Source: a bacterium
GTDB lineage: Bacteria; Hinthialibacterota; Hinthialibacteria; Hinthialibacterales; Hinthialibacteraceae
Length of the DNA: 39,793 nucleotides
Reading direction: 5' to 3'
NCBI GenBank assembly: GCA_963663405.2
Contig: CAXXSM010000108.1
Span: 1-39,793, forward strand
The translations under genes were made by a program, and so were the position numbers. Below the pieces are notes generated by a model that saw only the letters and a list, made by a program, of their open reading frames with translations, ran no database searches and was not told the DNA's origin. This document shows, in pieces, positions 856 to 39,524 of the stretch; within the stretch, counting starts at the first letter, position 1, and every line of letters starts with the position of its first letter.

Positions 856-1897
856 TTTTTTTGGGACATTGTTTCGCGGTCTGTTCCGCTTGATCAAGTT
901 CGTTATCCTCACTGTGTTTTTCATGGTGTTGCTTCTGGCGGGTATGTACGCCGGAGGGTTTTGGCTTCTGGATTATCTCGTGCGGGGAGAAAAAGTAACC
1001 GTGCCACGGCTTTACGGAAAATCGAAGGCCGAGGCGATCGAAATTCTCGCCGAAAATGGATTAATGCCCAAACTTCCCATTGAAGAATTCCCAAGCCAAG
1101 ACGCTCCAGCGGGGATTGTGATCGGCCAACGTCCGGCGCCGGATAAACTCGTGAAAAGGCGGCGCAGCGTCACACTCATCATCAGTTCAGGAGCGGAACG
1201 GATTCGGATTCCCACATTGATTGGATGGGATGAAGATCAGATTGTTTCGGAATTGCAGAGCGCAGGTTTGGAATTAGGCCGCCGGGCGGCCGTTTATCAT
1301 ACTGAATTTCCCAATGGGACGATCATCTCTCAAGATCCACTCCCTGGACGCCAGTTGCTGCAAGGGAAAAAAATCGATATTCTCGTCAGTATGGGGCCGG
1401 AAGCGGTCAACTATGTCATGCCCAATTTTATCGGTCTCGATTCACCGACAGTGCTTAGTCAGATCGCCCAAGATCCGTTCCATATTCCGGATGATAATAT
1501 CTACTATCAAAAAACCTCCGATTCCTCTCAATGGAACCGGATTATCAAGCAACTCCCCCGCCCCGGCGCGAAAGTGGCCGCAGGTGAAAGCGTCTCCTTG
1601 ACCATTGGATCCAGTGGCCGGGAGTTGGCGAGAATGCGGATGATTCACGTTAATTTCCCTATTACGCCGGCTCTCTCAACCGGTACCATGGCGTTGATCG
1701 TATGGGATGAAGCCTCTTTCATGTTTAAAGAACCCACTCTTTATCCAATCGACGCGTTCCATTCATCGAATGAAGTCGACAAGTGGATACCTGTGTTTGG
1801 GGACACTCTCATAATTCTTGGATTAATCGATCTGAACGATCCGTTCGCGTTTCCTCAGATTCTTGAGAAACAGTTTTATAGAGCGCCTTCGAAGTGA
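848..1897 (+). CDS. Membrane-anchored PASTA-repeat protein
   Basis: N-terminal TM helix followed by three PASTA-like repeats (VPRLYGKS...VIGQRP, IPTLIGW...IISQDP, MPNFIGL...IIKQLP). The start may be TTG 848, overlapping the rsmB stop, or ATG 815. Confidence 0.85.
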   Translation: MGSFFGTLFRGLFRLIKFVILTVFFMVLLLAGMYAGGFWLLDYLVRGEKVTVPRLYGKSKAEAIEILAENGLMPKLPIEEFPSQDAPAGIVIGQRPAPDKLVKRRRSVTLIISSGAERIRIPTLIGWDEDQIVSELQSAGLELGRRAAVYHTEFPNGTIISQDPLPGRQLLQGKKIDILVSMGPEAVNYVMPNFIGLDSPTVLSQIAQDPFHIPDDNIYYQKTSDSSQWNRIIKQLPRPGAKVAAGESVSLTIGSSGRELARMRMIHVNFPITPALSTGTMALIVWDEASFMFKEPTLYPIDAFHSSNEVDKWIPVFGDTLIILGLIDLNDPFAFPQILEKQFYRAPSK

Positions 1898-1924
1898 GTA
1901 TTTGATTTTGATGGAAAAAGAAAG

Positions 1925-1949
1925 GGTGAGTCACGTTTTATTGACCCAC
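1925..1949. terminator. Possible terminator hairpin between convergent genes
   Basis: GGTGAGTCA...TGACCCACC imperfect stem, preceded by an A-run (U-tail on the minus strand). Confidence 0.4.
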
Positions 1950-2021
1950 CGCTAGTAAGTTGTGCTGTAGTAATATTCACTGATTCTACGAGCTATAAAA
2001 ACGCGGTCCAACCTTGCGGAA

Positions 2022-2582
2022 TTAGCTGCCGAAAATATACCAATCGCCGCTGCTGATTGTTCCATTGCTGGAATCGTAAAAATGAAGTGGATTCCCGACC
2101 GCCGCTTCATAATCGGTATCCGGCATGGCGCCATGTAGAACGTAACCGGCTTTCCGGCCTTGTTGCTCGGGGATTAAGCTGAATGTGGATCCACTTTCCC
2201 GGAGGGGATTGGCGTAATCCGGATCCCAAAGTGGAAAAGCGCTGTCTTCGGGTTGGAACATGTCGCTTGAACTTGGATCGATTCCTTCCCGGAATGGATC
2301 GAGAGGGACGGAGGTCATGTATGCGACCGGGGATGTCAACCGAGCCAACCGGGCGTACCGCAGATTCCCCGCCGTGCTGGGTGTCGGTGGATACATATTA
2401 TTGTCGATATTATACATCGCTAAGGCGGTGCTGACAGATTTCATATCCGCCTGGCACCGTGCAACCTTGGCGCGGACTTGGGCGTTGAGAAAATTGGGGA
2501 CGGCGATCGCCGCCAGGATTCCAATAATCGCCACAACGATGAGAAGTTCAATCAGGGTGAAGGCGTTACGATGTTTTATCAT
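2022..2582 (-). CDS. Prepilin-type N-terminal cleavage/methylation protein (type IV pilin / GspG-like)
   Basis: AFTLIELLIVVAIIGILAAIAVPNF class III signal peptide. The AAAGGAG SD upstream of ATG 2582 favours that start over 2603. Confidence 0.85.
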   Translation of the reverse strand: MIKHRNAFTLIELLIVVAIIGILAAIAVPNFLNAQVRAKVARCQADMKSVSTALAMYNIDNNMYPPTPSTAGNLRYARLARLTSPVAYMTSVPLDPFREGIDPSSSDMFQPEDSAFPLWDPDYANPLRESGSTFSLIPEQQGRKAGYVLHGAMPDTDYEAAVGNPLHFYDSSNGTISSGDWYIFGS

Positions 2583-2828
2583 TACAGTTGCTCCTTTCAA
2601 CATCTATTTAACGTAATATATTGGGATAATATTTAACGATACCTGTAAAAGATCGGAAGAAAAGGGATTCAGACGATCTTTTCACAACGATTCAATCCTA
2701 GCTAAATACGATCTTAATAATCGTTATTGCGGTTTTCAAGTTAAAACAGCCTCGCAACGGCAAAGTCATGAATGAAAGCATTTCAAGACATAAATTCCGC
2801 AGAATTACTTTACAGAATTTTGATCCGG

Positions 2829-5800
2829 TTATTTCACCCGAATCACCCGATTTAGCACGGTATCACTGACTAAGATTTCCCTTTTTGCGTGCAGAGGATT
2901 CCTGTAGGCCGTAAGAGTTTTCTTCCCCCCAAGCCTTTGGTAAGGATTTCGATCCGTTCGCCTTCCGGATTGTAGACATAGACGCAACGGCCAATTGGAT
3001 CAGTCAAGTAGATCGTTCCATCGGGGGAGCAAGCCAGGTGGCCTTCAAAACCGCCTTGATTTTCCCATTCCGTCTCGACGGGCCAGATTTGAACGACTGT
3101 TCCATTCGTCCGGTATTCTTTAACCCGCTTATTGAGACTGTCCAGAATCACCAGATTGCCCTTTGGTGTGACCGCAATCCCCACCGGCTCATTGAATGAG
3201 TCTTCACTATCCCCCTTTTTTGTTCCCCACGTACGAATTAATTTTCCTTCCTGGTTCATAATTTTGACTTGGCTGTTGCCTGTGTCGGCGATGTACAGGA
3301 GGCGCGTTTGTGGATGAAACGCGATTCCACGCTGTCCATAAAAGCCCAAGGGAGCCGAGCCTAAGAACGTTCCGTTCTTGTCCAACACAACGATGCGGTG
3401 GTTCCATGTATCGGAGACATAAATCCGGCCGGTTTGGGGATCGAACGCGATATCGTTTGGTTCTTTAAATTCCCCCTCACCATCGCCTTCCTCACCGGTC
3501 TGCCAGAGATACGCGCCATTCTCATTGAACACCTGTACCCGGTGATTCCAAGTGTCAATCACATAAATATTGCCTTCCGTATCTTGGACCATCCCACGAG
3601 GTTCATGGAACTGTCCGTTCATCACGCCTTCCCCGCCCTGGTACATGGATACGCCTTGTTCCTTGGGCTGCAGGGCGGGCGGTGTGTTTTGGGTTCATCT
3701 GGACGAACGGCTCCATAAACGCGGTTCAGACTCCTGTCAATCTCGAAAATGGATTGTTCTTCAATGCGGAACACAAGGTGGAACAGATCATCCCATTCTT
3801 CGATCCGTTTCAACGATTCCGGACCGTATGGCGGGCGATTTCCACGAGGGTCTTCTAATTCCAATTTTCCGAATACGAGATACTCAACTTGATACTGCCC
3901 CAAAAGATCTTTAACGATTTTTTTTGTCTTGCGAAAGATAGATCCGGTTGACGGCGTCCGTGCGAGGGCGCTTTTGATCGGCGTGCATCCGCTCGCCCAC
4001 GTGATGATCCCAGCCGAGAATGGCGGGCAGGCCGGTGTAGGAGCAAAACCGCGATTCATCGTAATATGGACGCAGGGTCAATTCAACAATATTGGGGGAG
4101 CCTTTCACAAATCGATTGAACCATTGGATTCCCGCATACGCTGGATATTCTTTTTTCCGCAGCCAGGAATACGCGTCGAGGGAGGGGACATCTCCCATCG
4201 CGTCTTGATAGGTCAACGCGCGGCCCGTTTTTGTGATGATAACCGGGGAAACGATCGTGAAGGGAAGCGTCAACAGAAACAGGATCAGAAGGGCGGCTGT
4301 CAAAACCACCTGGATGGATATGACGGAGAACCGGGCGATCCCGGTTTCTCAATTGCGCGCAAAGCGCATGAAATCCATTCCAGATCAACGGCAGAGACAG
4401 GGCCGCGAAGATGGCTAGATACTGCCAGACTTGGATATTGAATTTGAAAACCGTGTTGTAGCGGTGATTGGGGATTGACCAGCCTTCGTTGATATGGAAA
4501 AATTCGATCCCCATCGACAAGCCTAAACCGAGGAGTCCAATCAATAAAGTAAAAACACTTGCGCTATCCCGTTTGCGGTTCCAAAGCAATAGGAAAAGAA
4601 CGAACAGGAAAGGCAGAAACATGCCCACGACGGTATAATCGAGCGGCTCTCCCAATCCTCCTGATGTTGTGGGGAGAGAGGGTTTGGTGAACCAGCCGTG
4701 GAAGTACTGTGAATCGGTTTCCAATTTAGCGTTTATATACCAAGTCACGAACTTTGCAACAGCGAATGTTAGTAGATAAAACCCAGTAAAACCGATGACT
4801 CGTTTCTTCGAAAATGAGCCATCTTGATGCGTGAAGGCTAAAAACGTTACGCCAACCGCAACCGGCAGCAGCAGGTGTCCGAAGAAACCGAGATAGGAGG
4901 ATACCGTCGAACTCCCTTCCGACATCCAACCAATTGAGTTAACACGTGAAATGAAATTGTGATGGAAGGGATAATACAACAGCACACCAAGTCCAAAGAC
5001 CGCGAGTATCGGCCCTAATGGAAAACGGAAGAAGGATTGAATTCCCTCCGGTGAGATCCATTGCAACTTCGTAAACCGGGCGGTGGCTAAATCTGATTCG
5101 CGATAGAATTTAATAGCGGCTACAAGTAAAAACGCGATCAACAGGCCGGGTAGATCCCATGTATTCGTACAGATCACCGTTCCCAACAGCAACGCGAGGA
5201 AGAACAACGCAGTTCCCGGCGCCCACGCGCCTTTCTCTTTCAATGGACGCGCGAAGTAGGCGTAAAGCAGAATCAAAAACGCGAAGGTGAATGGTATAAC
5301 CAGCATATGCGCGTGCATGTCGAAGAAGAGATGCGTCCAATAGGGGAACTCGTTTGCGACCGTGCCGGGGAAGATGTGGCTTCTCGCGTTCCAGAACATG
5401 GCGCCGTAGTCGGTATGAAAGATCTTATCCAGCGTGGCTTGTGAGGCCAGCCCTAAATACGTGCAGATCGACATCCAAATCAGTTTCGAGACAGTTTGGA
5501 TTCCTTGGATACAACTCGATACGCTGAATCCCGGCGCGGGCCGGGCGCTTGGATCCCATTTGGTCAGATCAAAGAAGGTGAATAGATGGGCGGAGAATAG
5601 ACCGAGATACAACGCCAAAAGCGAAAGAACCGTCTTCCGGCAGAGCGCGTATGTCAGCGCGAATATTCCCAGCCCCGCCAGCGCCGTCGCGCAGGTCCCA
5701 CCGATGTTGAAGATGTATTCCGGCGGGAGTCCGGCGAAACGTCCAACGATGGTGAAGAGGGCGTGTCCGTAATAGTAATAGTTGACTGGATAGCCGCTGA

Positions 5801-8642
5801 TCCAGGGATCTTCAGGCGGACAGGTTTCCGCGCGGCTCATCGCGCTGACAAAGGATGCGTTCATCGGTTTTTCACCCTGATGCGCGTCGGGGTGATAGGC
5901 CCGTACGATCAGGAAAAATGACCATAAGACGAGGAATAAGACTTCCATCCCCACAAGCAAAGGCCATTTTTGCCGGATAAACGCAAGGATTTCAATCCGG
6001 CGCCGGTACGCGCTCCAAACCGCCGCGCCAAGAAGAACCAGAAAGATAAAGAACAAGCCCCCGCGCGAGAGAGGAAGCGTTCCGATTGACGCCAACACCC
6101 AGCCAATCCATGCAAATAACGCCAATCCAACCGCCTTTGAGATCTCAAATCCCCGGCCGGGCAGTTTCGAACAGAACGGGAAGAGGAAGATAAACGCGAT
6201 TCCCCCTAACAGTTGAAGAACGATCCACCAATTGAGAACGGGATGTTCCGGATACGGGGCGTACACGGGATATCCGTCCCGCGCGGTTAAGATATCTTTT
6301 TCGGTGATCCTAGTAACCCACGTTGGAGGATTGAGAATCAGTTCCTTCAATTCGTCTTTGGAAAAATCGTGGACTTTCTCAAACAGAATCATCTTGGGAT
6401 GATCGTAGATGCGGGCCGTTTCATCTTCTTCATCCACACGAAATTCCCAGCCGAGGAATTGGGGGGGATTAGTTACGATCTTGGCGATGCGGAATCCCAA
6501 TTGTTCGGCAAAAAGGGCTTGTAAGAACTGATTGGTGATTGGGAATTTTTCGGGATTGTGAAGCGTCGATCCATACGGGCGTTTGCTGGGGAAGAGGATG
6601 TAATCATTATTTGCCAGCACATTCGCGAGATACTGAATGCGTTGATTAATATTTTTTTCGGAGTGCACATTGGCGTGTACATCAAACTCTTGGCGGATTG
6701 AAACGCCATGCGCGCTTTCATCCCAATTGTTCTTCGCGATTTTCGCGCCGCGCGGTGTATTTTCCCGGATATATTTTCCCATCGTAATCGCTGGATGCGG
6801 CCGGCTATAGATACCTGAATAAGCCCATCCATAGATGAATCCAAACAATAACGCAGCCGTCCCGCCAACGATGCCGAAACGCTTCAGCGCCGTTTTCCAG
6901 CCGCTGGTCAGTTTTGGAAATTCGGGGGAATAAAACTGGGGCTTTATATGAATCAAATCAGCGATCAGCCGCGCCCCCAAGACGAGAAGAATGGGCAAAA
7001 CGGGGATCATATAACGCGGGAATTTGCTGGAAAATGTGCTGTACAGGATAAAACTGGGGATCGCCCACGAAGCGAGAACGACATCGGCTCCGGATCGTGT
7101 CCAGAAGATTCGATAGATAGCGTAGAGACATCCCACGACGGCGAAGAACGCTGTCATGTGATCTAATGAAGGATAGAAGAGATTATCGAGCGAGGTAAAA
7201 AAGGGAACTGTGTTGCTGAATTGAAGGGTATAGGGCACAGGATATGTTCCTGTCATGTTAATGCCCGATTGTTCGATGATATTTCTCGCAAACGCGACGG
7301 AATCGAAATACGCCATCGGTTCCGCGAAGAGAAACGCGGCTACGCCGATGGGAATCCCGAGAACAAACCATACCCAAGGGAGATAGAGGCGGAAGGCGGG
7401 ACAAAACCAACCGGTTTCGCGATCGTTCCAGATATGCCGTATATACAACATCACCATAGACGCGATGAACAAAAACGCGGCGAAAACGATCCATAAAATC
7501 CAATGATTTCCATAAAACCCGCAGAACTGGGCGAGAGTTACGTTAAACGGGGGCTCCGTCGAACTCGCCGCTTTAAAGAAATGCAGCAAGATCAAGCCCG
7601 CGATCCCCACCCAGACGGTGTTGATCCACCGGCCGACTTTGCCATGCTTGTTATCGCCCCAGGTCCCCACCGCGTGCGCGAGGAGATAAATCCCTGGCAG
7701 CGTGAGTCCGCTCCATTTGGAACCTACCGAAAAACCGGTACAGATGGCGCCGAGAATATACCAGATCAACCTGGGTTTCTGGCTGATCTTCAAGAAACAA
7801 TAGATCGCGGCGGTCACCCAAAATCCGAGAACACCATCGACCGTCATGAAATGACAGGTCTGCACATGCAGCATCGCCACCGCCAGCATCGCGGCGGCGA
7901 TCAGGCCCGCTGTCCGGTTGTAAGCGTCGCGGCCGATAAGGTAGACCAATAGCACAGTGAGCGCGCCCATCCACGCGGTGACGATCCGCCCGATAAGTAC
8001 AATGGAACTCATATCGGGCTGGTAGTTGCTTGCGGCGAAGTCAATGATGAGACTGGGCATAAAGACAACGAGAAGCAGACCGGTGATGGGGATAATGAGA
8101 GAGGGAAAAAGAAACGGCAGCCGCCGCTCATCGAGAACGAGCGGCCCGTGTGTCTCCTTCGCCCGTTTAAAATCGCGGTTGACGGCGATAAACAGCCGAA
8201 TCCCGATCACAAAAACGAAGAAACCCGCCAGGATTCCCAGCCAATCCACGGAGAGGAAATTCCAGGAATTATCCAGACCTTTGTGAGATGATAGATATTC
8301 TTGGTAAAGCAGATAGAGGTGATTGGGAAATGTGCCGTAGTTGTAATTGATAGGACGCAGGCCCGGTTTCCCTGTGGATGAGGGAACGCCTTCTTTGACT
8401 TCCAGATTCCGCTCGTAAAGGATTTGCAACTGTTCGCGCCAGGGCAGATTTCGCTCCTCTTCGGTCAATCCCTGCGGGCGCAGTCCCATAGCGCAGTTGG
8501 TGTAATGCCGTTCGTCAGGATGAAAGTTTGTAATCCGGTCTTTTAATCCCCAATCAGCGCCATACAACCGCAGATACAGCGCAAGTCCGAAGATTAACAG
8601 TAAACAAAGCGAAGAAAGGATGCGTACGATAGCGGATTTCAT
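2829..8642 (-). CDS. Giant multi-domain membrane protein: GT39/PMT-like GT-C domain + DUF2298 (Chlor_Arch_YYY) + C-terminal NHL beta-propeller; four frameshifts in this assembly
   Basis: ORFs 4083..8642, 3911..4309, 3622..4059 and 2870..3646 are consecutive pieces of one protein. Motifs: FHPDE, GEKPMN, DPWISGYPVNYYYYGH, NEFP...DMHAH, NTWD, RYNTVFKF, GLPAILGW, and NHL repeats (FxEPxGI...DTWNHR). Correcting the last shift gives ...KGEILVSDTVLNRVIRVK* ending at 2829. Confidence 0.8.
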
Positions 8643-8813: not shown

Positions 8814-8911
8814 GAGAGGGTGGCAAGGGCAAGGTTTTTTTTCTGCCCTTGTGTAATTTTGTACGATTCTATCGTAAGGGCAGACAAAAGCCTTGTCCTT
8901 ACTACCCTCTC
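8814..8911. repeat. REP-like long imperfect palindrome
   Basis: Arms 8814-8850 (GAGAGGGTGGCAAGGGCAAGG...CTGCCCTT) and 8876-8911 (AAGGGCAG...CCTTGTCCTTACTACCCTCTC) are near reverse complements. A related single arm lies at 23466-23504. Confidence 0.7.
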
Positions 8912-16111: not shown

Positions 16112-16205
16112 TCCTATTGGAGACACAGTTCAAAAGCGCTTGTATATTCTTAAATATTGTAGAATAGGAGATTAGATACTGAAGGACGGTAGTGAATTGT
16201 GTAAC

Positions 16206-16287
16206 TGTCAGAATCTGGATAGCCAGGATAACTTGATCAATATAAATCCTGAGTATCCTGATCATCAAGACCATCCAGATTCTGACA
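16206..16287. repeat. Intergenic inverted repeat with perfect 15-bp arms
   Basis: TGTCAGAATCTGGAT (16206-16220) pairs with ATCCAGATTCTGACA (16273-16287); inner CAGGATA/TATCCTG. Confidence 0.75.
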
Positions 16288-16376
16288 AAAAACTTTGTTT
16301 AAAGAAATATACAAAACCATTCCACCACCTTACAATCGGATACAGTTGGCAAATATGCAATCAACGAGTATCGGCC

Positions 16377-17447
16377 ATGATTAATCCAAAGATTTTGAAA
16401 AAACTGAAAAAAAGCGCGGCGGTCTGGAATCAATGGAGGATGGAGAATCCGGAAGGGCCGCTGGATCTGAGCTGGGTGGATTTGAGCGGCTTGAATCTTC
16501 GTACAGTAAATCTGCGGAGCGCGATTCTCACTGAGGCGGATTTTGTCGGGACGGATCTTTACGGCGCCGACTTGCGCGGCGCGAATCTGACGTGGGCGGA
16601 TCTGAGCCACACGGATCTTCAAACAGCGAATCTGTGCAACGCCAATCTCACTCACACCAATCTCAGCGGCGCCGATCTAAAAGAAGTGAATCTGATCGGC
16701 GCGCATCTGAACGGGACGAACTTGCGTAAAGCAAACCTGACAGGCGCAATACTGCATGACACCTTTTTCTCATCAACCCAGCTGGCCGGGGCCAATTTCT
16801 CGAAAGCGAAAGTCTGGGACACACTTTTCGCGGATGTTGATTTACGCGATGCGCAGGGTCTGGAATCGGTTATTCAGGAAGGCCCATCGACGATCGGCGT
16901 GGATACCCTGTACCGCTCCAACGGGAAGATTCCCCCCGCGTTTTTGAGCAATGCGGGAATCCCGGAGAATTTAATCGCGCAAATTAAATCATTGACAACC
17001 ACGCAAATACCCTTTGATTCGTTCTTCATACGAGGAAGCGCGCAGGATCGCCAATTTTGTGAAATCTTATGGAATGAATTAAAGAACAAAGGCGTCCGAA
17101 ATTGGATTTTATTGGATAGCGCTTTTGAAAATGAATCGGTGAAACGAAAAAGCCGCGGCCTTTACCAGAGTCATTGTAAACTGATTCTCGTTTGCTCTAA
17201 GCATTCGCTTGAGAGTGATTGGATCGAGGAAGAAATCGGCCGGGCGATCGATAGTGAGATCCAGGAGAAGACAGCGGTTCTTTTCCCTATCATCCTCGAC
17301 CGCTTTTACGAACAGTGGGATAATCCCCGCCAACCCAATATCACCGAATCGCTCGCGGGGGATTTCACACAATGGAAACAGAATCCGCATTCGTTCCAGA
17401 CGAATTTACAACGTCTTATTCATGCGTTGCGCGGAATTGAGGAATAA
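16377..17447 (+). CDS. Pentapeptide-repeat + TIR domain protein
   Basis: More than 20 A(D/N)Lxx pentapeptides followed by a TIR_2-like C-terminus (DRQF...L...KGVRNW, LILVCSKHSLESDWIEEEI, VLFPIILD, DFTQW). ATG 16377 is the likely start. Confidence 0.85.
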   Translation: MINPKILKKLKKSAAVWNQWRMENPEGPLDLSWVDLSGLNLRTVNLRSAILTEADFVGTDLYGADLRGANLTWADLSHTDLQTANLCNANLTHTNLSGADLKEVNLIGAHLNGTNLRKANLTGAILHDTFFSSTQLAGANFSKAKVWDTLFADVDLRDAQGLESVIQEGPSTIGVDTLYRSNGKIPPAFLSNAGIPENLIAQIKSLTTTQIPFDSFFIRGSAQDRQFCEILWNELKNKGVRNWILLDSAFENESVKRKSRGLYQSHCKLILVCSKHSLESDWIEEEIGRAIDSEIQEKTAVLFPIILDRFYEQWDNPRQPNITESLAGDFTQWKQNPHSFQTNLQRLIHALRGIEE

Positions 17448-23465: not shown

Positions 23466-23522
23466 AAGGGCGGAAGAAGAAAACCTTGCCCTTGGCGCCC
23501 TCTCATAATATTATTATGAGAG
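23466..23522. repeat. Single arm of the 8.8-kb REP-like repeat plus an AT-rich hairpin between convergent genes
   Basis: AAGGGCGGAAGAAGAAAACCTTGCCCTTGGCGCCCTCTC resembles the reverse complement of 8814-8850; CTCTCATAATA-T-TATTATGAGAG hairpin. Confidence 0.6.
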
Positions 23523-31903: not shown

Positions 31904-33121
31904 GTGAAGATACTCTTTATTCTGCCCCAGATTCCCTATCCTCCTCACAGCGGAGGCCGGATCGTCACATGGAACACGTTGAAACGCTTCGCGAAAACCT
32001 GCTCCGTCAGTCTTGTTTGCCTCTATCATCATCCTTCAGAACTGGAGGCTCTGGAGACAGTCAAAGACTATTGCGAAGAAGCCACCGCGTTTCCCGCTTA
32101 TGGGAAATGGGCGTTTAAACCACTCGTCCAGTCTCTCTTTTCCCGCTGGCCTTACAAAGCGCGCCGGTTTTACAATCCGGATATGTTCGCTTACATCCAG
32201 CGGCTGCTGAAGCGGGAATCATTCGATGTGATTCACGCGCAGAATTTCTATACAACTTCCTACGTCACAGGCGCGGAATCCGCGTTGAAAATCCATTATA
32301 AAGAAAACGTCGAAGGAAACATTTTGACGCGGTATGCGCGAGCGTCCAAAAATCCACTCATTAAAACCGCGGCGTACGTTGAAGGCTGGCGCACACGCCG
32401 GTTTGAACTGCGCGCGTGCCGTAAGTTTGACCGGATCCTATGTATCTCCCCAATCGACCGGGATACGATCGCGGCTCTAGATCCTTCTCTAACCATTCAC
32501 CATCAAAAACCCGGCGTGGATCTTGAAGCGTATCCGTTTCTCGAAGAACCAAGCGGCCCTCCTACGATTGTATTCACGGGGATGATGTCATATTATCCAA
32601 ACAGCGATGGAATGCTTTACTTTCTCCAACAAATCTGGCCGGTTATTAAAAAACGAACGCCGGACGCGCGGTTGCAGATCGTTGGAGCCGGACCACCTGA
32701 GTCGATCCAGCATTATCATGGGAACAATGACGTTGCCGTAACGGGCCGCGTGGAGAGTGTGCGAGAGTATTTATTAGGCGCGCATGTTTTTATTGTTCCC
32801 CTGCGTATCGGAGGAGGAATCCGGTTGAAGATTTTAGAAGCGATGGCGTCGGGCCGGGCGATTGTCAGCACCTCTATCGGCTGCGAAGGATTGGAGGGCA
32901 AACACGGCGAACAATTAGCCATCGCCGATGATCCAGAGGCATTCGCGAACGCTGTCGTGAACCTGATTGAAAATCCAGCGGAACGGAACCGGCTGCGGGA
33001 AAACGCCCGTTCTCTCGTGGAATCCGTTTACGATTGGGATACAGTGATCAGCCGCCAGGTTGCGGATTACCAAATGTTTGTTGAGAAGGCGGTGTCCCCG
33101 GCGCGGCGCCAGGATTCATAG
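31904..33121 (+). CDS. GT4 family glycosyltransferase
   Basis: PYPPHSGG, FTGMMSYYPN and GGGIRLKILEAMASGRAIVST. Confidence 0.9.
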   Translation: MKILFILPQIPYPPHSGGRIVTWNTLKRFAKTCSVSLVCLYHHPSELEALETVKDYCEEATAFPAYGKWAFKPLVQSLFSRWPYKARRFYNPDMFAYIQRLLKRESFDVIHAQNFYTTSYVTGAESALKIHYKENVEGNILTRYARASKNPLIKTAAYVEGWRTRRFELRACRKFDRILCISPIDRDTIAALDPSLTIHHQKPGVDLEAYPFLEEPSGPPTIVFTGMMSYYPNSDGMLYFLQQIWPVIKKRTPDARLQIVGAGPPESIQHYHGNNDVAVTGRVESVREYLLGAHVFIVPLRIGGGIRLKILEAMASGRAIVSTSIGCEGLEGKHGEQLAIADDPEAFANAVVNLIENPAERNRLRENARSLVESVYDWDTVISRQVADYQMFVEKAVSPARRQDS

Positions 33122-34319
33122 AGGGTGTTGGGGGTGGTTCGATATCGTACAGTTCATCCTTACTGGTTTCAATATAGGCTTTGACGATGTCCGCGGCGGA
33201 TTGGGGATTCGTCTTGCTCAATGCGGAGAAAATCTCTTCCCGGTTTTCAATCCGGTTTAATATACGCAACACGATAAATTGATTTTTCTTTTCCGCTTTC
33301 TCTTTCAGAATAGGATCGGCGGCCTCTTCTGGAGTGAGGACGGGAACCGTGTCAAATAGATTGATCAATAAGGGAGCCGCTTCTTTGGGTTTCATCCCGG
33401 CTACGGCGGTGGCCATCTGCTGTTCTCGCTCGCTTAGTTCACTCTTCTCCCGCTCTTCCCGCAGCGTTTCCAATTCCTGCAACGCGGTATACGCGTCCGT
33501 CACTTGCTTGACGAGATCGCTCAGTTCCGCCTGCTGCGCGTCGATCCGCGACTCCCGCTCGTTCAGCAAACGTTCCCGCTCATTCAATTGAGCGATGGTC
33601 TGGCGGATATTCTCCCGTTCTTTGGAAAGATTCTGCAGCTGCTCCGACATCGGCTCGTCTGGATCGCCAATAAATTCCCCAATCGTAAGTGACTCTGGAA
33701 CCAGGGTTGGTGTGGGAAGGGGGATGGGGGCCGTCGCGCTGCGGATATGGTCGCCAAGATAGGGCACATTGGCTAGAATCTGTTTATCAATCACACCGGT
33801 GTATAAACCAATCGCGGCGCCAACCACGGCCAACGCCATAAGAACCATCAAGTAAAATAAAATCCCACCCCGCTCATGTTTATGACGCGCGTAGTTTTGG
33901 GCGCCGATTTCATCCATCAAATAGCCTTCATGTCTCTGCATTTCGGCTCTCCATTCCGCCAGCCGTCGTTCTTTGAGGCGTTCCAGGATTTTTTCTTCTT
34001 GATACAACTCGATCAATTCCTGTTTTTTCTTGTCTTGATCCTTCCGGATTTTATCGATTTCTTCCCGTTTTTGCCGTTCTACTTCGTTGGTGTAATTCCG
34101 GAAAAGATCGAGGCTTAATTCTTCTTGAATCCATTGCGTGTCGTCCACCTCTTCCAGCAACCGCCGCCGCATGTCTTGAACGGCCCGGCGTCCATCTTCG
34201 ATCTCATGAAGCAACCGCTGGATTTGAGCCTCCAACGCGGCGATCTCCTCTTCTTTCCGCTCAATTGAATAGCGTTTAATTCGCATTACGGGATCAAATC
34301 GAAATCGAAACGCTCTCAT
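33048..34319 (-). CDS. fliJ: FliJ fused to a TM + coiled-coil + MgtE_N-like (YlxF/FlbB/MotE-like) domain
   Basis: The N-terminal ~150 aa are FliJ-like (FRFRFDPVMRIK...ILERLKERR...MDE) and lie directly after fliI. They are followed by a TM helix, a coiled coil and MKPKEAAPLL. Confidence 0.7.
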   Translation of the reverse strand: MRAFRFRFDPVMRIKRYSIERKEEEIAALEAQIQRLLHEIEDGRRAVQDMRRRLLEEVDDTQWIQEELSLDLFRNYTNEVERQKREEIDKIRKDQDKKKQELIELYQEEKILERLKERRLAEWRAEMQRHEGYLMDEIGAQNYARHKHERGGILFYLMVLMALAVVGAAIGLYTGVIDKQILANVPYLGDHIRSATAPIPLPTPTLVPESLTIGEFIGDPDEPMSEQLQNLSKERENIRQTIAQLNERERLLNERESRIDAQQAELSDLVKQVTDAYTALQELETLREEREKSELSEREQQMATAVAGMKPKEAAPLLINLFDTVPVLTPEEAADPILKEKAEKKNQFIVLRILNRIENREEIFSALSKTNPQSAADIVKAYIETSKDELYDIEPPPTPSMNPGAAPGTPPSQQTFGNPQPGG

Positions 34320-35692
34320 TCAGCGCCTCCATTTTTGACTCCCGTCTTCTTTTTGGGGAAGCACTGAAGAGAGATATTCTCCATTTGTTGGACCGCTTCT
34401 TCATAAGGAACCGCTTCATGAATCCCTTGACGCAAAAACGCGTTGATCGTGGGCGTCATTTCGATGCTCAGGTCGATTTCCGGATTCGAACCGCGCTGAT
34501 AGGCGCCGATGTTGATCAGGTCTTCCGCGTCACGGTGTGTCGAAATCACCTCACAGATCCGCCGCGCAGACTCCACTTGTTCGCTTGGGACAATATCCAC
34601 CATCACACGGCTGATGCTCTGCAGCACATCGACGGAGGGATAATGGTTTTTATGCGCCAGATTCCGCGAAAGAACAATATGGCCATCTAAGATACCGCGC
34701 ACCGCGTCCGCGACCGGCTCGTTCATATCGTCCCCTTCGACTAATACTGTGAAAAGGCCGGTGATGGTTCCCTGACCGGGCGTTGTGCCCGCCCGTTCTA
34801 AGAATGAAGGCAGCAAAGCGAACACGGACGGCGTATACCCACGTGTCGTCGGCGGTTCTCCTGACGCGAGACCGACTTCCCGCTGCGCCATCGCCATTCG
34901 TGTAACGGAATCCATCATGAAAAGAACGTTGTTTCCTTGATCTCGGAAATATTCGGCGATCGACATCGCGGTTAACGCCCCTTTGACACGCAAGAGGGGT
35001 GGATTATCGCTTGTCGCGACGATTAGAACGCTTCTCGCCAATCCTTCTTCCCCAAGATCCTTCTCGATAAATTCCCGCACTTCCCTGCCCCGCTCACCGA
35101 TCAAGGCGATCACATTGACATCCGCTTCCGTAGCGCGGGCGATCATCCCCATGAGAGTGCTCTTGCCCACGCCGCTGCCGGAAAAGACGCCGATCCGCTG
35201 CCCCCGGCCCCAGGTCAGAACCGAGTCGATCACTTTTACGCCTGTCGAAAGAGGCTGCTTGATACGTTCACGGGTGATGATATCCGGAGGTTTATTGTAA
35301 ATCGATCGCAGCGTGTCCGTCCGGGGCGTTTCCTTCCCATCGCGGGCGGTTCCCAGCCCATCCAAGATACGGCCCAGCAAACCATCGCCGCATTTCACCC
35401 GGAGAGGGCCACCGGTTGAGATCACCTCACAGCCGGGCCGGATGCCGGTGATATCTCCAAACGCCATCAGAATAACACGTCCGGAACGGAATCCGACGAT
35501 TTCCGCCGGGATGGGAGCCTGATCCCCTTCGGGAACTATACGCACAAAATCGCCCACTGCGCCCCCTGGCCCGCGCGACAGAATCACCAATCCGACCAGT
35601 TCATCCACATACCCCCGCTGCCGGACCGGCTTCGCCTGCTCCACGGACCAACGGATCGAATTCCAATCAATCTCATGCGTTTGTAAACTCAT
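34316..35692 (-). CDS. fliI: Flagellar/T3SS export ATPase FliI
   Basis: SGSGVGKST, ALIGERGREV, MDSVTR, GEPP and ILDGHIVLSR; 4-bp overlaps with both neighbours. Confidence 0.95.
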   Translation of the reverse strand: MSLQTHEIDWNSIRWSVEQAKPVRQRGYVDELVGLVILSRGPGGAVGDFVRIVPEGDQAPIPAEIVGFRSGRVILMAFGDITGIRPGCEVISTGGPLRVKCGDGLLGRILDGLGTARDGKETPRTDTLRSIYNKPPDIITRERIKQPLSTGVKVIDSVLTWGRGQRIGVFSGSGVGKSTLMGMIARATEADVNVIALIGERGREVREFIEKDLGEEGLARSVLIVATSDNPPLLRVKGALTAMSIAEYFRDQGNNVLFMMDSVTRMAMAQREVGLASGEPPTTRGYTPSVFALLPSFLERAGTTPGQGTITGLFTVLVEGDDMNEPVADAVRGILDGHIVLSRNLAHKNHYPSVDVLQSISRVMVDIVPSEQVESARRICEVISTHRDAEDLINIGAYQRGSNPEIDLSIEMTPTINAFLRQGIHEAVPYEEAVQQMENISLQCFPKKKTGVKNGGAE

Positions 35693-36414
35693 GAATTCAA
35701 CACAGCGTCGTTTAGAATCTCCACCTGTTTCTCAATCCGGGCGTCAACGCCCCCCGTTCCGGATTCAATGATCACGCCTCCACGATTGACACGGGTGTCC
35801 GCCTCGATCGAGATGGAATCGATTTCGTCAAAGAGACGTGTGAATTCGGGAACCCACTCTTCAATCTTTTCCCGGTCGTCTGGATGAACGAGAACTTGCA
35901 ACGTCTGCCGGTCCGCCGCCAATTTGATCGCGTCAGAGGTGACTCGAACGACAGTATCGTTATCTTCCTCAATGGTCTTTCGCACGACGCGGGAGACAAT
36001 ATCACACACCAGTTTCCGGATCACCGGTTCTTGATCGCGGAACATGGCTTCCAAGATCGCTTTGCCTTCCACTACCATGGATCGCAGGTTCTGGATCACT
36101 CCCGCAGCTTGTTTGACCGCTTCTTCCCGCCCTTGTTTAAGACCGTCTTCAAAACCTTGTTTACGCGCCTCTTCCTTGATGGCTTCCCCGTCGATTTTGG
36201 CTTGCGCAATGATCTCATCCGCCTCGGTTTTCGCGCTTTCCGCGATTCCATCCGCTTGCTGGGACGCGTTGGTCAGAATGGATTCTTCCCGCTCCTGGGC
36301 AGCGCGGATAATCAGGGCCGCTTCTTCCTCCGCATGGAGAAGCGTTTCTACCCGGTCAACCACGTTGAACGGTTTTTCAAGTCGTACATTAGGAGCTTTA
36401 ATGATTCGAGCCAT
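35689..36414 (-). CDS. fliH: Flagellar assembly protein FliH
   Basis: AxxxGxxxGxxxG repeat (ARKQGFEDGLKQG), VHPDD and GGVIIESGTGGVDA; lies upstream of fliI. Confidence 0.9.
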   Translation of the reverse strand: MARIIKAPNVRLEKPFNVVDRVETLLHAEEEAALIIRAAQEREESILTNASQQADGIAESAKTEADEIIAQAKIDGEAIKEEARKQGFEDGLKQGREEAVKQAAGVIQNLRSMVVEGKAILEAMFRDQEPVIRKLVCDIVSRVVRKTIEEDNDTVVRVTSDAIKLAADRQTLQVLVHPDDREKIEEWVPEFTRLFDEIDSISIEADTRVNRGGVIIESGTGGVDARIEKQVEILNDAVLNS

Positions 36415-36432
36415 AATCGATTGATCTTTTAA

Positions 36433-37306
36433 AGGGGTTTAGGTTGAAGACTGAAGACTGAAGGAAAAGCAAAAGGCGCCGCAGGCGCAACCTTCAACCT
36501 TCAACCTTCAACCTTCAACCTTCAACCTTCAGCCTTCAGCCTTCAACCTTCAACCTTCAGCCTTCAACCTTCAGCCTTCAGCCTTCAACCTTCAACCTTC
36601 AACCTTCAACCTTCAGCCTTCAGCCTTCAACCTTCAGCCTTCAACCTTCAGCCTTCAACCTTCAACCTTCAACCTTCAGCCTTCAACCTTCAACCTTCAG
36701 CCTTCAACCTTCAGCCTTCAGCCTTCAGCCTTCAGCCTTCAGCCTTCAGCCTTCAACCTTCAACCTTCAGCCTTCAACCTTCAACCTTCAACCTTCAACC
36801 TTCAACCTTCAACCTTCAGCCTTCAGCCTTCAGCCTTCAACCTTCAGCCTTCAGCCTTCAGCCTTCAGCCTTCAACCTTCAGCCTTCAGCCTTCAACCTT
36901 CAACCTTCAGCCTTCAGCCTTCAGCCTTCAGCCTTCAGCCTTCAACCTTCAACCTTCAACCTTCAGCCTTCAGCCTTCAGCCTTCAGCCTTCAACCTTCA
37001 ACCTTCAGCCTTCAGCCTTCAACCTTCAACCTTCAACCTTCAGCCTTCAGCCTTCAACCTTCAACCTTCAACCTTCAGCCTTCAACCTTCAACCTTCAAC
37101 CTTCAACCTTCAACCTTCAACCTTCAACCTTCAGCCTTCAGCCTTCAGCCTTCAACCTTCAACCTTCAGCCTTCAGCCTTCAGCCTTCAGCCTTCAACCT
37201 TCAGCCTTCAACCTTCAACCTTCAACCTTCAACCTTCAACCTTCAGCCTTCAACCTTCAGCCTTCAGCCTTCAGCCTTCAGCCTTCAACCTTCAGCCTAA
37301 ACCCCT
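36433..37306. repeat. Palindrome-bounded heptamer tandem array: 115 x CCTTCA[A/G] at 36491-37295
   Basis: Counted by hand: 60 CCTTCAA and 55 CCTTCAG, with no indels or other variants. Termini AGGGGTTTAGG / CCTAAACCCCT are inverted; three inverted units on the left; GCGCC-GCA-GGCGC mini-hairpin in the spacer. Confidence 0.97.
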
Positions 37307-37309
37307 AAT

Positions 37310-37380
37310 AAAAACGGAGAGGGCGTGGTTTCAACCTGGCCGGTTATGGAAACAGGTTCGAGAAGACCGCCGCCCTCCCG
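37310..37380 (-). terminator. Long hairpin with U-tail downstream of the NDT-family gene
   Basis: The minus strand reads GGGAGGGCG...AACCTG...CAGGTT...CGCCCTCTCC-GTTTTT. Confidence 0.5.
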
Positions 37381-37424
37381 CTGGATAAACCAAGCATATT
37401 CGTTTCCCGGCGGCTCATTATGAC

Positions 37425-37904
37425 TTACCGGATAAAAGAGAGGATTTTCAAATCATCCAGAGCGGTCACAATCTGTCCGCCGCTTTGTTCTATCCAATAT
37501 TGTACTTGCAGGTTGACGCAAACGCCATCATTTTCACCGGACAACCGGAAATCCCCCCGGTAGCCATTGATCACTTTATTACCCAAGCCGAAGGTATAGC
37601 CGATCTCCGACGCCGTTCCTGAATCCACGTCCGTTCCATCCAAGACAGCGAGCACACCATCGCTGGATCGAAGCAGCTGGGCGTTCCGTTCCGCGATCCG
37701 CATAGAGATTCGATGAAACTCCGCCGCTCGCGCTTCCCGTTTATCGATCGCTCCGGCGCGTTGAAGTTCTTCTTCCAAATCCGGTGAGGCCGACCAGGGA
37801 TCAATAATCTTATACCCCAACGCCTCCATCTTCTCCCGCAAGGGGACAAGAAATCCCCTTGATGATTCCGCGAATCCTAATGGAGAGGCGATGAATATAT
37901 TCAT
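37425..37904 (-). CDS. Nucleoside 2-deoxyribosyltransferase / nucleotide N-glycosidase family protein
   Basis: IFIASPLGF, IIDPW, LDGTDVDSGTASEIGY (catalytic Glu), YRGDFR and NLQV. Confidence 0.85.
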   Translation of the reverse strand: MNIFIASPLGFAESSRGFLVPLREKMEALGYKIIDPWSASPDLEEELQRAGAIDKREARAAEFHRISMRIAERNAQLLRSSDGVLAVLDGTDVDSGTASEIGYTFGLGNKVINGYRGDFRLSGENDGVCVNLQVQYWIEQSGGQIVTALDDLKILSFIR

Positions 37905-37927
37905 AAGATCTCTTTTCCACTATTCGC

Positions 37928-39524
37928 TCAGCTACTCAACCACGATTTAATAATCGCCGCGACTTCTTCCGGTTTCTCGGAGGCGTAATTGATGACATGT
38001 TCCTGCATCTTCAACCGGCGTTGTTCTTCGGCAGGCAAGCTGGATATATCGCCAAATTCAGCAAGCCCCAACTGGGAGAGCGACAGTTCCCTCGCTTCGG
38101 TAACTGGTTCGATGGGGATCTCTTCGCCGATTTCCTCTTCTTTCTTCGGGGGGCGCGAACGCTTTTTGGAAGAAGAAATAGGCGAATACACCAAGCGCAA
38201 TCAACAGAAGCAGGGGGATCGCCGACCGCACGATCGACATAACATTCCCCCAAAATTGTTCGCTCGCTCGTTTTCGTTCCGCTGTGGTATCGAATGGAAT
38301 ACACTTGAGAGTGAATTTATTTGGATCGTTCGGCGCTTCTGTTTCATTTAATCCAACTCCCACCCGGAGCAAACTCTTAAACGCGTCCAATTCTTCGGGT
38401 GTATAAGAAACCTTTTCCCCCGTCTCCACGTCTTCTTTATACCCCACTTGAATCGCGGCCGCGATCGATTGGATTTCTCCTTGATCCTCTTCAATCAACG
38501 TTTCGAACCAGGGATGTATGTAGTTTGTAATTTCCTCCGTAATCTCCGTACTGCTGATATCCGACTCGGAGCCAATGCCCGAATCTTGTACGTTTCCAGT
38601 GACACCCGGCGCGCCGGAGATTCCACGTTCTTTTGTTTTTTCGCCGTATTCTTTCGTGCTGAGTGGAGCCGCGCCGGATTTATCGATGTGGACGTTCTTG
38701 ATCCGTTTTTTCTCCCAATCGAGAACGACATTAACAGACACCTTATAATTGCTCTCACCAACTTGATCGATCAAAAGCGATTCGAGTTTCCTCTTCAACT
38801 TATCTTCAACGTATTGTTGGATTTCAAGTTGTTTATTCATCTTGGCGACACCGGGTTCGATATCGGTGTCTTCACTCAGCATTCGATTCTGGTTGTCGGA
38901 GACAATCACTTTTTGGGGACGCAGCCCAGGCACCGCCGCCGCGACAAGCCGTTGGATTCCCGCTACTTCATCCGATGATATGGGCCGTTGTGAGATGAGT
39001 TTAACCGACGCGGTCGTCTCGATTTTATCTTTTAAAAAGAGCGTTTGGGGGGGATCCGTAATGGTAACATAAGCGGCGGTGATATTGGCGCCATCGACAA
39101 TCGTTTTTTCCAGCACGTTCTGTAAGGCAATAATCGATTGAAGATCGAACATGCGTTCGGTCATTCCCAGGCGGGTTTCTTCAAAAATCTCATACGTTTT
39201 ACCGGGATTAAAACCGATCAATCCCTGCGTAGCCAATTGACGCCGGATTCGAGGGGCTTCACTTTGATCCACTTGGATGCTTTGATCATCCGCTTTATAA
39301 GCGATTCCTTTTTCTTCGAGAAAACTCTCAATCCGGCCCAACTGCGCGTCGTCTCGCGACGTCATCAATGTACTCCACTGGGGTTGACTGGCAAAATAGA
39401 CAGCGGCGCCCATCGCGAGCAGAAGAAGTATGGGCGCGGCGACAAACATCGCCCGTTGCTGCATCGAAAGACTATCCCAAATTCGCATGACTTGTTCACG
39501 AATTTGTTGTATGAAATCCTGCAT
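37928..39524 (-). CDS. fliF: Flagellar M-ring protein FliF, with one frameshift near 38150
   Basis: Two TM helices, YEIFEETRLGMTE, ASVKL and LVAAAVPGL. The C-terminal ...PEEVAAIIKSWL lies in ORF 37928..38200; deleting one base from the G6 run at 38148-38153 joins the two parts. Confidence 0.88.

Follow-up and report, generated by a model that had tools for sequence, protein, structure and literature searches.

The perfect array of 115 heptamers located between the flagellar gene fliH and a nucleoside 2-deoxyribosyltransferase-family (NDT) gene is most likely an intergenic heptamer repeat of a previously known sort at extreme length. Together with a short inverted partner it makes up an inverted-repeat cassette (36433-37306), of which it is the long arm. 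This feature was overlooked in the original prediction made from the window, that is, from the whole stretch of 39,793 nt analysed here. In our estimate the chances are about even that the array is genomic and arose as the runaway arm of this small intergenic cassette, growing by slippage and pruned by the collapse of long repeats. A real array of this size would far exceed every other GGYTGAA array seen (115 units versus at most 16 in 185,579 species genomes) and would be a clean bacterial instance of a two-state variant-repeat code and a very discriminating strain marker; it would also make testable the survival of long bacterial repeats through the loss of long perfect blocks. The present evidence reveals neither a new enzyme nor a new regulatory system.

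Structure of the array and its cassette

The long arm (36491-37295) is a single non-coding run of (CCTTCAR)x115, 805 nt long, with A as the last base of 60 units and G as the last base of 55; its 690 constant positions contain no change, and the run contains no indel. A recount returned a string identical to that of the original prediction and the same distance of 76 nt between the fliH start (36414) and the array. No other long tandem array is present in the 39.8-kb window (score 1237; the other four rows score at most 49). The minus strand encodes fliF, the NDT gene and fliHIJ. On this strand the unit reads GGYTGAA, in which Y is the single variable position (C/T) and no other C occurs, and the transcribed side of the array has about 43% G and 7% C. 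Each minus-strand frame has a stop codon every 7 codons across the array, and the plus-strand frames are open through it but have no start codon; the array was therefore rejected as protein-coding.

The order of the two unit versions is close to coin flips. There are 48 runs in the A/G string versus 58.4 in 1500 shuffles (P=0.04), a slight clustering, and no periodicity was detected (best autocorrelation z 1.87, P=0.77 versus 1500 shuffles). The longest repeated block comprises 10 units, or 76 nt (P<=0.26 versus 1500 shuffles), and a comparison with 1000 shuffles shows no enrichment of adjacent duplications of blocks of 2-6 units. These autocorrelation, repeated-block and duplication tests detected no hidden period or block structure, so that the reported lack of an obvious higher-order period stands. 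The array has 99 distinct 8-unit words where 89 were expected from 1500 shuffles (P=0.024); versus 4000 run-matched strings the surplus has P=0.0075, which is modest, as several word lengths were tried.

Both ends of the array join cleanly to matching inverted ends. On the fliH side, the short inverted arm (36433-36464, minus strand; 32 nt) consists of three heptamers and a matching outer end, terminates 18 nt before the fliH start, and is 88% complementary to positions 37275-37306. It is separated from the array by a spacer of 26 nt (36465-36490), where a 5-bp GC hairpin (36476-36488) with a U-rich tract after it looks like a terminator on the minus strand; two terminator-like calls were obtained, both at this site, versus 1.6 expected by chance. 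On the other side, the outer end of the long arm (37296-37306) is a degenerate unit with a C-tract and corresponds to the outer end of the short arm.

The minus-strand RNA of the arms folds at -42.4 kcal/mol (z -6.6, with 0 of 200 shuffles as low) and the plus-strand RNA at -36.4 kcal/mol; the minus-strand fold is the better one because the differences between the arms turn into G-U pairs. In the centroid fold of the whole region, reliable pairing with the short arm is confined to the last array units, and either unit version (C or U) pairs with G of the short arm. According to these predicted folds, 18 nt separate a potential stem-loop from the fliH start. Rfam gave four weak hairpin matches, all far below the gathering score, and no sigma-70-type promoter was detected in 36300-38100. 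Between the array and the NDT stop, a further stem-loop was predicted at 37310-37375 but is not significant (z about -1.0 to -1.7). Another dispersed intergenic repeat of the window, 28 nt long, occurs at 8814-8841 and 23477-23504; its copies are 89% alike, lie in opposite orientations and form a local hairpin each.

With its inverted ends of 32 nt and 88% complementarity, the cassette resembles MITE/REP-like elements with terminal inverted repeats. The flanks share at most AA (read by eye), which is no convincing target-site duplication. The cassette is present in one copy in the 39.8-kb window, where no transposase was found, and there is no transposase among the 24 open reading frames (ORFs) tested around four related arrays described below. 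A BLAST comparison of the cassette junction with plasmids and phages gave no match under a low-complexity filter that makes this result uninformative.

Gene neighbourhood and related arrays

Downstream of the cassette lies fliH (35689-36414, minus strand), the first gene of fliH-fliI-fliJ, and upstream lies the NDT gene (37425-37904, minus strand), which occupies the usual place of fliG and is preceded by fliF (37928-39524, minus strand), whose reading frame is broken near 38130, 0.8 kb from the array. The nearest matches share 59-60% identity in FliH, 71% in NDT and 51% in FliF; several are named Ca. Omnitrophota, and one NDT match is Ca. Hinthialibacter, which suggests a Hinthialibacterota-like bacterium as the host. 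The window is an entire contig. Neither a second copy of the locus nor another carrier of this FliH was found, and FliI has no close relative among plasmids. The NDT and FliH matches are apparently co-located in 23 of 36 relatives, as judged from contigs of equal size, an indirect and noisy measure (one of the 23 contigs is too short for both genes). By the same indirect reasoning, the spacer between NDT and fliH is at most 180, 525 and 835 nt on relatives' contigs of 1392, 1737 and 2044 nt, versus 1010 nt here, and a long spacer does not appear to be conserved. The linkage together with the shorter spacers suggests that fliF-NDT-fliH without fliG is the gene order of the lineage and that the long array is local, and the possibility that the cassette displaced fliG was rejected on the same linkage.

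Two further genes of the window deserve mention. At 33048-34319 (minus strand), FliJ carries a fused transmembrane segment and an FlbB/MotE-like C-terminal part (423 aa), and the end of this gene overlaps a convergent glycosyltransferase gene by 74 nt. At 16197-17447 (plus strand), a pentapeptide-repeat protein with a C-terminal TIR_2 domain is encoded in a lower-GC stretch.

We scanned 185,579 GTDB species genomes with a pattern of eight units including a G-then-A junction and obtained four loci (L001-L004) with 12, 16, 8 and 11 units, which belong to a Verrucomicrobiota, a Desulfuromonadales and two deltaproteobacterial MAGs, all unrelated genomes; the array of the window is absent from these matches. 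Thus the GGYTGAA family comprises five loci in at least three phyla, among which the array of 115 units is an extreme outlier, seven times as long as the longest GTDB array of this unit. The pattern demanded both units, so the scan covers mixed arrays only. All four arrays are intergenic and lie beside unrelated housekeeping genes. The layout of L002 is the same as that of the window, with a long GGYTGAA arm after a stop codon, a spacer, and three inverted units before the next gene (z -6.5); an inverted partner is present in just this one of the four related loci. GGYTGAA is on the coding strand in all four co-directional cases (the window and L001-L003, a small sample), and L004 lies between convergent genes.

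A/G changes occur at 12 of 43 steps in the four GTDB arrays and at 47 of 114 steps in the window (P=0.14), so the former look blockier. In L001-L003 the neighbouring genes are intact and the variable site is still two-state, so that such a site is not a mark of error-prone contigs alone. In the record of L004 itself, which is error-prone, the RND-transporter and formate-dehydrogenase genes are fragmented (958-3989). A different short heptamer array (GCTAAAT-like) is located at 5595-5624 of L001, 1.5 kb from the GGYTGAA array. The original prediction called for a search for other CCTTCAR arrays and for genes that co-occur with them; the arrays exist, whereas the 24 ORFs tested around them include neither a reverse transcriptase (RT) nor any polymerase except an ordinary DnaE. 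Four 16-mers of the two unit versions gave no match in the body of papers searched. A link of heptamer arrays to four-helix-bundle genes was also considered and dropped, as there was no such link in the literature searched or among the ORFs tested.

Origin of the two-state order

Several models of array growth were simulated and compared by a joint criterion whose limits were set with the data already known: no repeated block above 11 units, 95 or more distinct 8-unit words, and 42-56 runs. Coin flips satisfy it in 5% of 3000 strings. Plain slippage from seeds of 4 or 12 units does so in 1 of 1295 balanced arrays (from 4000 runs) and was rejected as the sole source of the order, in agreement with the earlier claim that block duplication alone would not leave such a string. 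When exact repeats of at least 11 units were subject to hard collapse, 7 of 203 finished runs conformed, and at 13 units 2 of 396; soft local collapse gave 12 of 116 finished runs, and 6 of 36 at its best setting. These collapse models were tuned after the fact and have few finished runs. The observed 99 distinct 8-unit words were reached in 2 of the 116 soft-collapse and none of the 203 hard-collapse runs. Of the 720 soft-collapse runs, 604 stopped short of 115 units, which fits the scarcity of long arrays.

The length of the perfect match drives deletion of repeats. In our models, a random-looking order is what remains once instability has removed the long perfect matches, be it in the cell or in the assembler. 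Since slippage with collapse of long repeats yields equally random strings, unit-by-unit synthesis is not needed to account for the order, and the earlier argument from a near coin-flip order to unit-by-unit addition does not hold.

For the growth of a genomic array by slippage and collapse we propose the following course. The ancestral element would have consisted of a few GGYTGAA units, the GC hairpin and a few complementary units, with the C and T versions both present from the start, as in its relatives elsewhere. The arm would then have lengthened through replication slippage, about 1-5 units at a time, and long perfect repeats within it would preferentially have collapsed, leaving a string free of long repeated blocks; the mixture of two units may be what allows the array to stay long. 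In the transcript, the last four units would pair with the short arm into a stem-loop just before fliH, and the other 110 units would be surplus. G-rich, C-poor RNA is a poor substrate for Rho. The strand composition of the array may thus explain both the strand bias and the tolerance of 800 untranslated bases within the operon, and we infer that the cassette acts as a tolerated mRNA stem-loop or as an attenuator.

Strand-specific change after expansion is an improbable alternative. It assumes that the array first expanded with GGCTGAA units only and that its order was randomised later, either by C-to-T changes on one strand (deamination of a looped-out or non-template strand, perhaps at methylated C) or by patchy repair between out-of-register units, and slippage with about three site-specific switches per event indeed satisfies the joint criterion in 1.3-8.1% of runs. 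However, the variable site would need more than 170 times the rate of the other six positions (60/115 versus 0/690), and no methylase evidence was found. Moreover, both units coexist in blocks in the arrays of other phyla, which favours inherited variants.

Even less probable, in our view, is templated addition of single units, in which a telomerase-like or DRT10-like RT, or fold-back synthesis, copies a two-unit template and the product is inserted in the cassette. The same very low probability is assigned to its most elaborate form, a real and hypervariable array written by an enzyme whose gene lies outside the window and which realigns randomly on a two-unit template, so that a telomerase-like 'tape' within a hairpin cassette tunes read-through into fliHIJ. 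The order of the array is compatible with independent draws, and the short repeated arm beside a stem-loop is loosely similar to the template and stem-loop of the DRT10 RNA (10.1101/2025.10.16.682844). At the same time, DRT10 as presented in the part of that report considered here has one fixed template and a free protein-primed cDNA, and that part does not describe chromosomal insertion. Fold-back synthesis had been suggested before, yet copying of the present short arm predicts TCTTCAR in two-thirds of the units, and none of the 115 has it; the present short arm is therefore not a fold-back template, and this route was rejected. As previously noted, the window has no polymerase or RT gene (no such family among its 31 ORFs); a SLATT gene is likewise missing from the window, and neither an RT nor a SLATT gene occurs among the 24 ORFs tested at L001-L004. 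Diversity-generating retroelements vary at all template adenines and depend on an RT. Such an element was rejected for the array, where one of the two A in each unit stays constant and the other changes to G alone, in a window without RT. The simpler models of slippage and collapse suffice.

The main competitor of a genomic origin is a sequencing or assembly artefact, which we regard as unlikely but clearly more plausible than the two preceding alternatives. The order of the array could be noise from a miscalled modified base or from a consensus over a mosaic of alleles, or its length could derive from library amplification or from a path through the assembly graph. The contig is indeed not free of errors. 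Beyond the FliF frameshift near 38130, the C-terminal 70 residues are encoded in another frame and are 83-94% identical to all 12 of 12 close homologues. A very large gene for a DUF2298/PMT/NHL membrane protein (2830-8642, minus strand) is apparently split, with four probable frame switches near 4330, 4050, 3680 and 2875, which would reflect either sequencing error or a pseudogene. All these frameshifts, like the array, lie near the contig ends, and they suggest a low-coverage long-read consensus. Nanopore ambiguities are mainly A/G and C/T, with the minimal motif RA/TY (10.1101/2023.09.15.556300), but the context in the array differs from the motif given in the part of that work considered here. 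The longest exact repeat, of 76 nt, is the most that a k=77 graph would leave, although chance gives it in about a quarter of strings, and forced collapse at this repeat length reproduces the array statistics; an independent copy of the locus was not found.

Several observations speak against an artefact. Coding sites that carry the 6-7-mer of the array encode family-typical residues at ArgS 124, 256 and 496 and RluA 23, compared with solved homologues, and at FliH 184 and FliF 114, 129 and 239, compared with homologues (no information came from FliH 88, FliF 344 or FliF 243, the last of which is synonymous). Elsewhere the C form is not clearly depleted (12 versus 17.3, P=0.12; 14 versus 16.0). 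The same site varies in L001-L003, and the 805 nt free of indels and other substitutions end in the matching inverted ends. The part of the literature on basecalling artefacts in repeats that was covered concerns human repeat expansions only.

Comparison with known repeats

Tandem arrays of a short unit are also the product of DRT10 and of telomerase; DRT10 requires an RT, an ncRNA and a SLATT protein (10.1101/2025.10.16.682844, as far as covered here), and no DRT10-type RT with an adjacent SLATT gene and ncRNA was found in the window. Closer in organisation are the minisatellite variant-repeat (MVR) maps, where near-identical units likewise form a code by their variant order, and where, in the part of the source used here, the intermingled order arises by turnover and exchange and no special polymerase is invoked (PMC2674676). 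Those minisatellites are eukaryotic with longer units, whereas the present array is bacterial, with a 7-nt unit, two states and a hairpin cassette.

Among bacterial repeats, TAACTGA direct repeats with up to 43 copies are known from Beggiatoaceae, Cyanobacteria and Bacteroidetes, where they are mixed with related heptamers, change length in 7-nt steps and are scattered over phyla (PMC4679880, from the sections considered, which also cite Mrazek 2007 for an excess of heptamers and a slippage proposal). They share with our array the intergenic position of a heptamer, stops on the coding strand with open frames on the other strand, the mixture with related heptamers and the scatter across phyla. 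They differ in the unit, in being mostly direct repeats that lack an inverted arm, and in their number of at most 43 copies, compared with an inverted arm and 115 units here.

The heptamers of Xanthomonas (GGGAATC) and Nostoc (GGGGA(C/T)T) are intergenic arrays of 2-26 units that are transcribed and often form inverted pairs, 70 of them in Xcc (PMC4692102, as far as this source was used). The array described here differs from them in its unit, which has GG only and no G3 tracts for a quadruplex, and in its 115 units, aperiodic two-state order and single copy in 40 kb. Like them, it has a 7-nt unit, an intergenic position between co-directional genes and an inverted pair, with the G-rich strand following a stop on the coding strand and preceding a start on the opposite strand, and like the Nostoc heptamer it has one C/T-variable site. 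Intergenic heptameric long repeats typically have many dispersed copies per genome and vary between strains in 7-nt steps; here one cassette was seen in 39.8 kb, and the spacers of relatives appear shorter by indirect evidence. Of the other properties of such repeats, this array has the head-to-tail 7-nt unit, far longer than chance, the non-coding location between genes and, in a small sample of four co-directional cases, the strand polarity tied to transcription.
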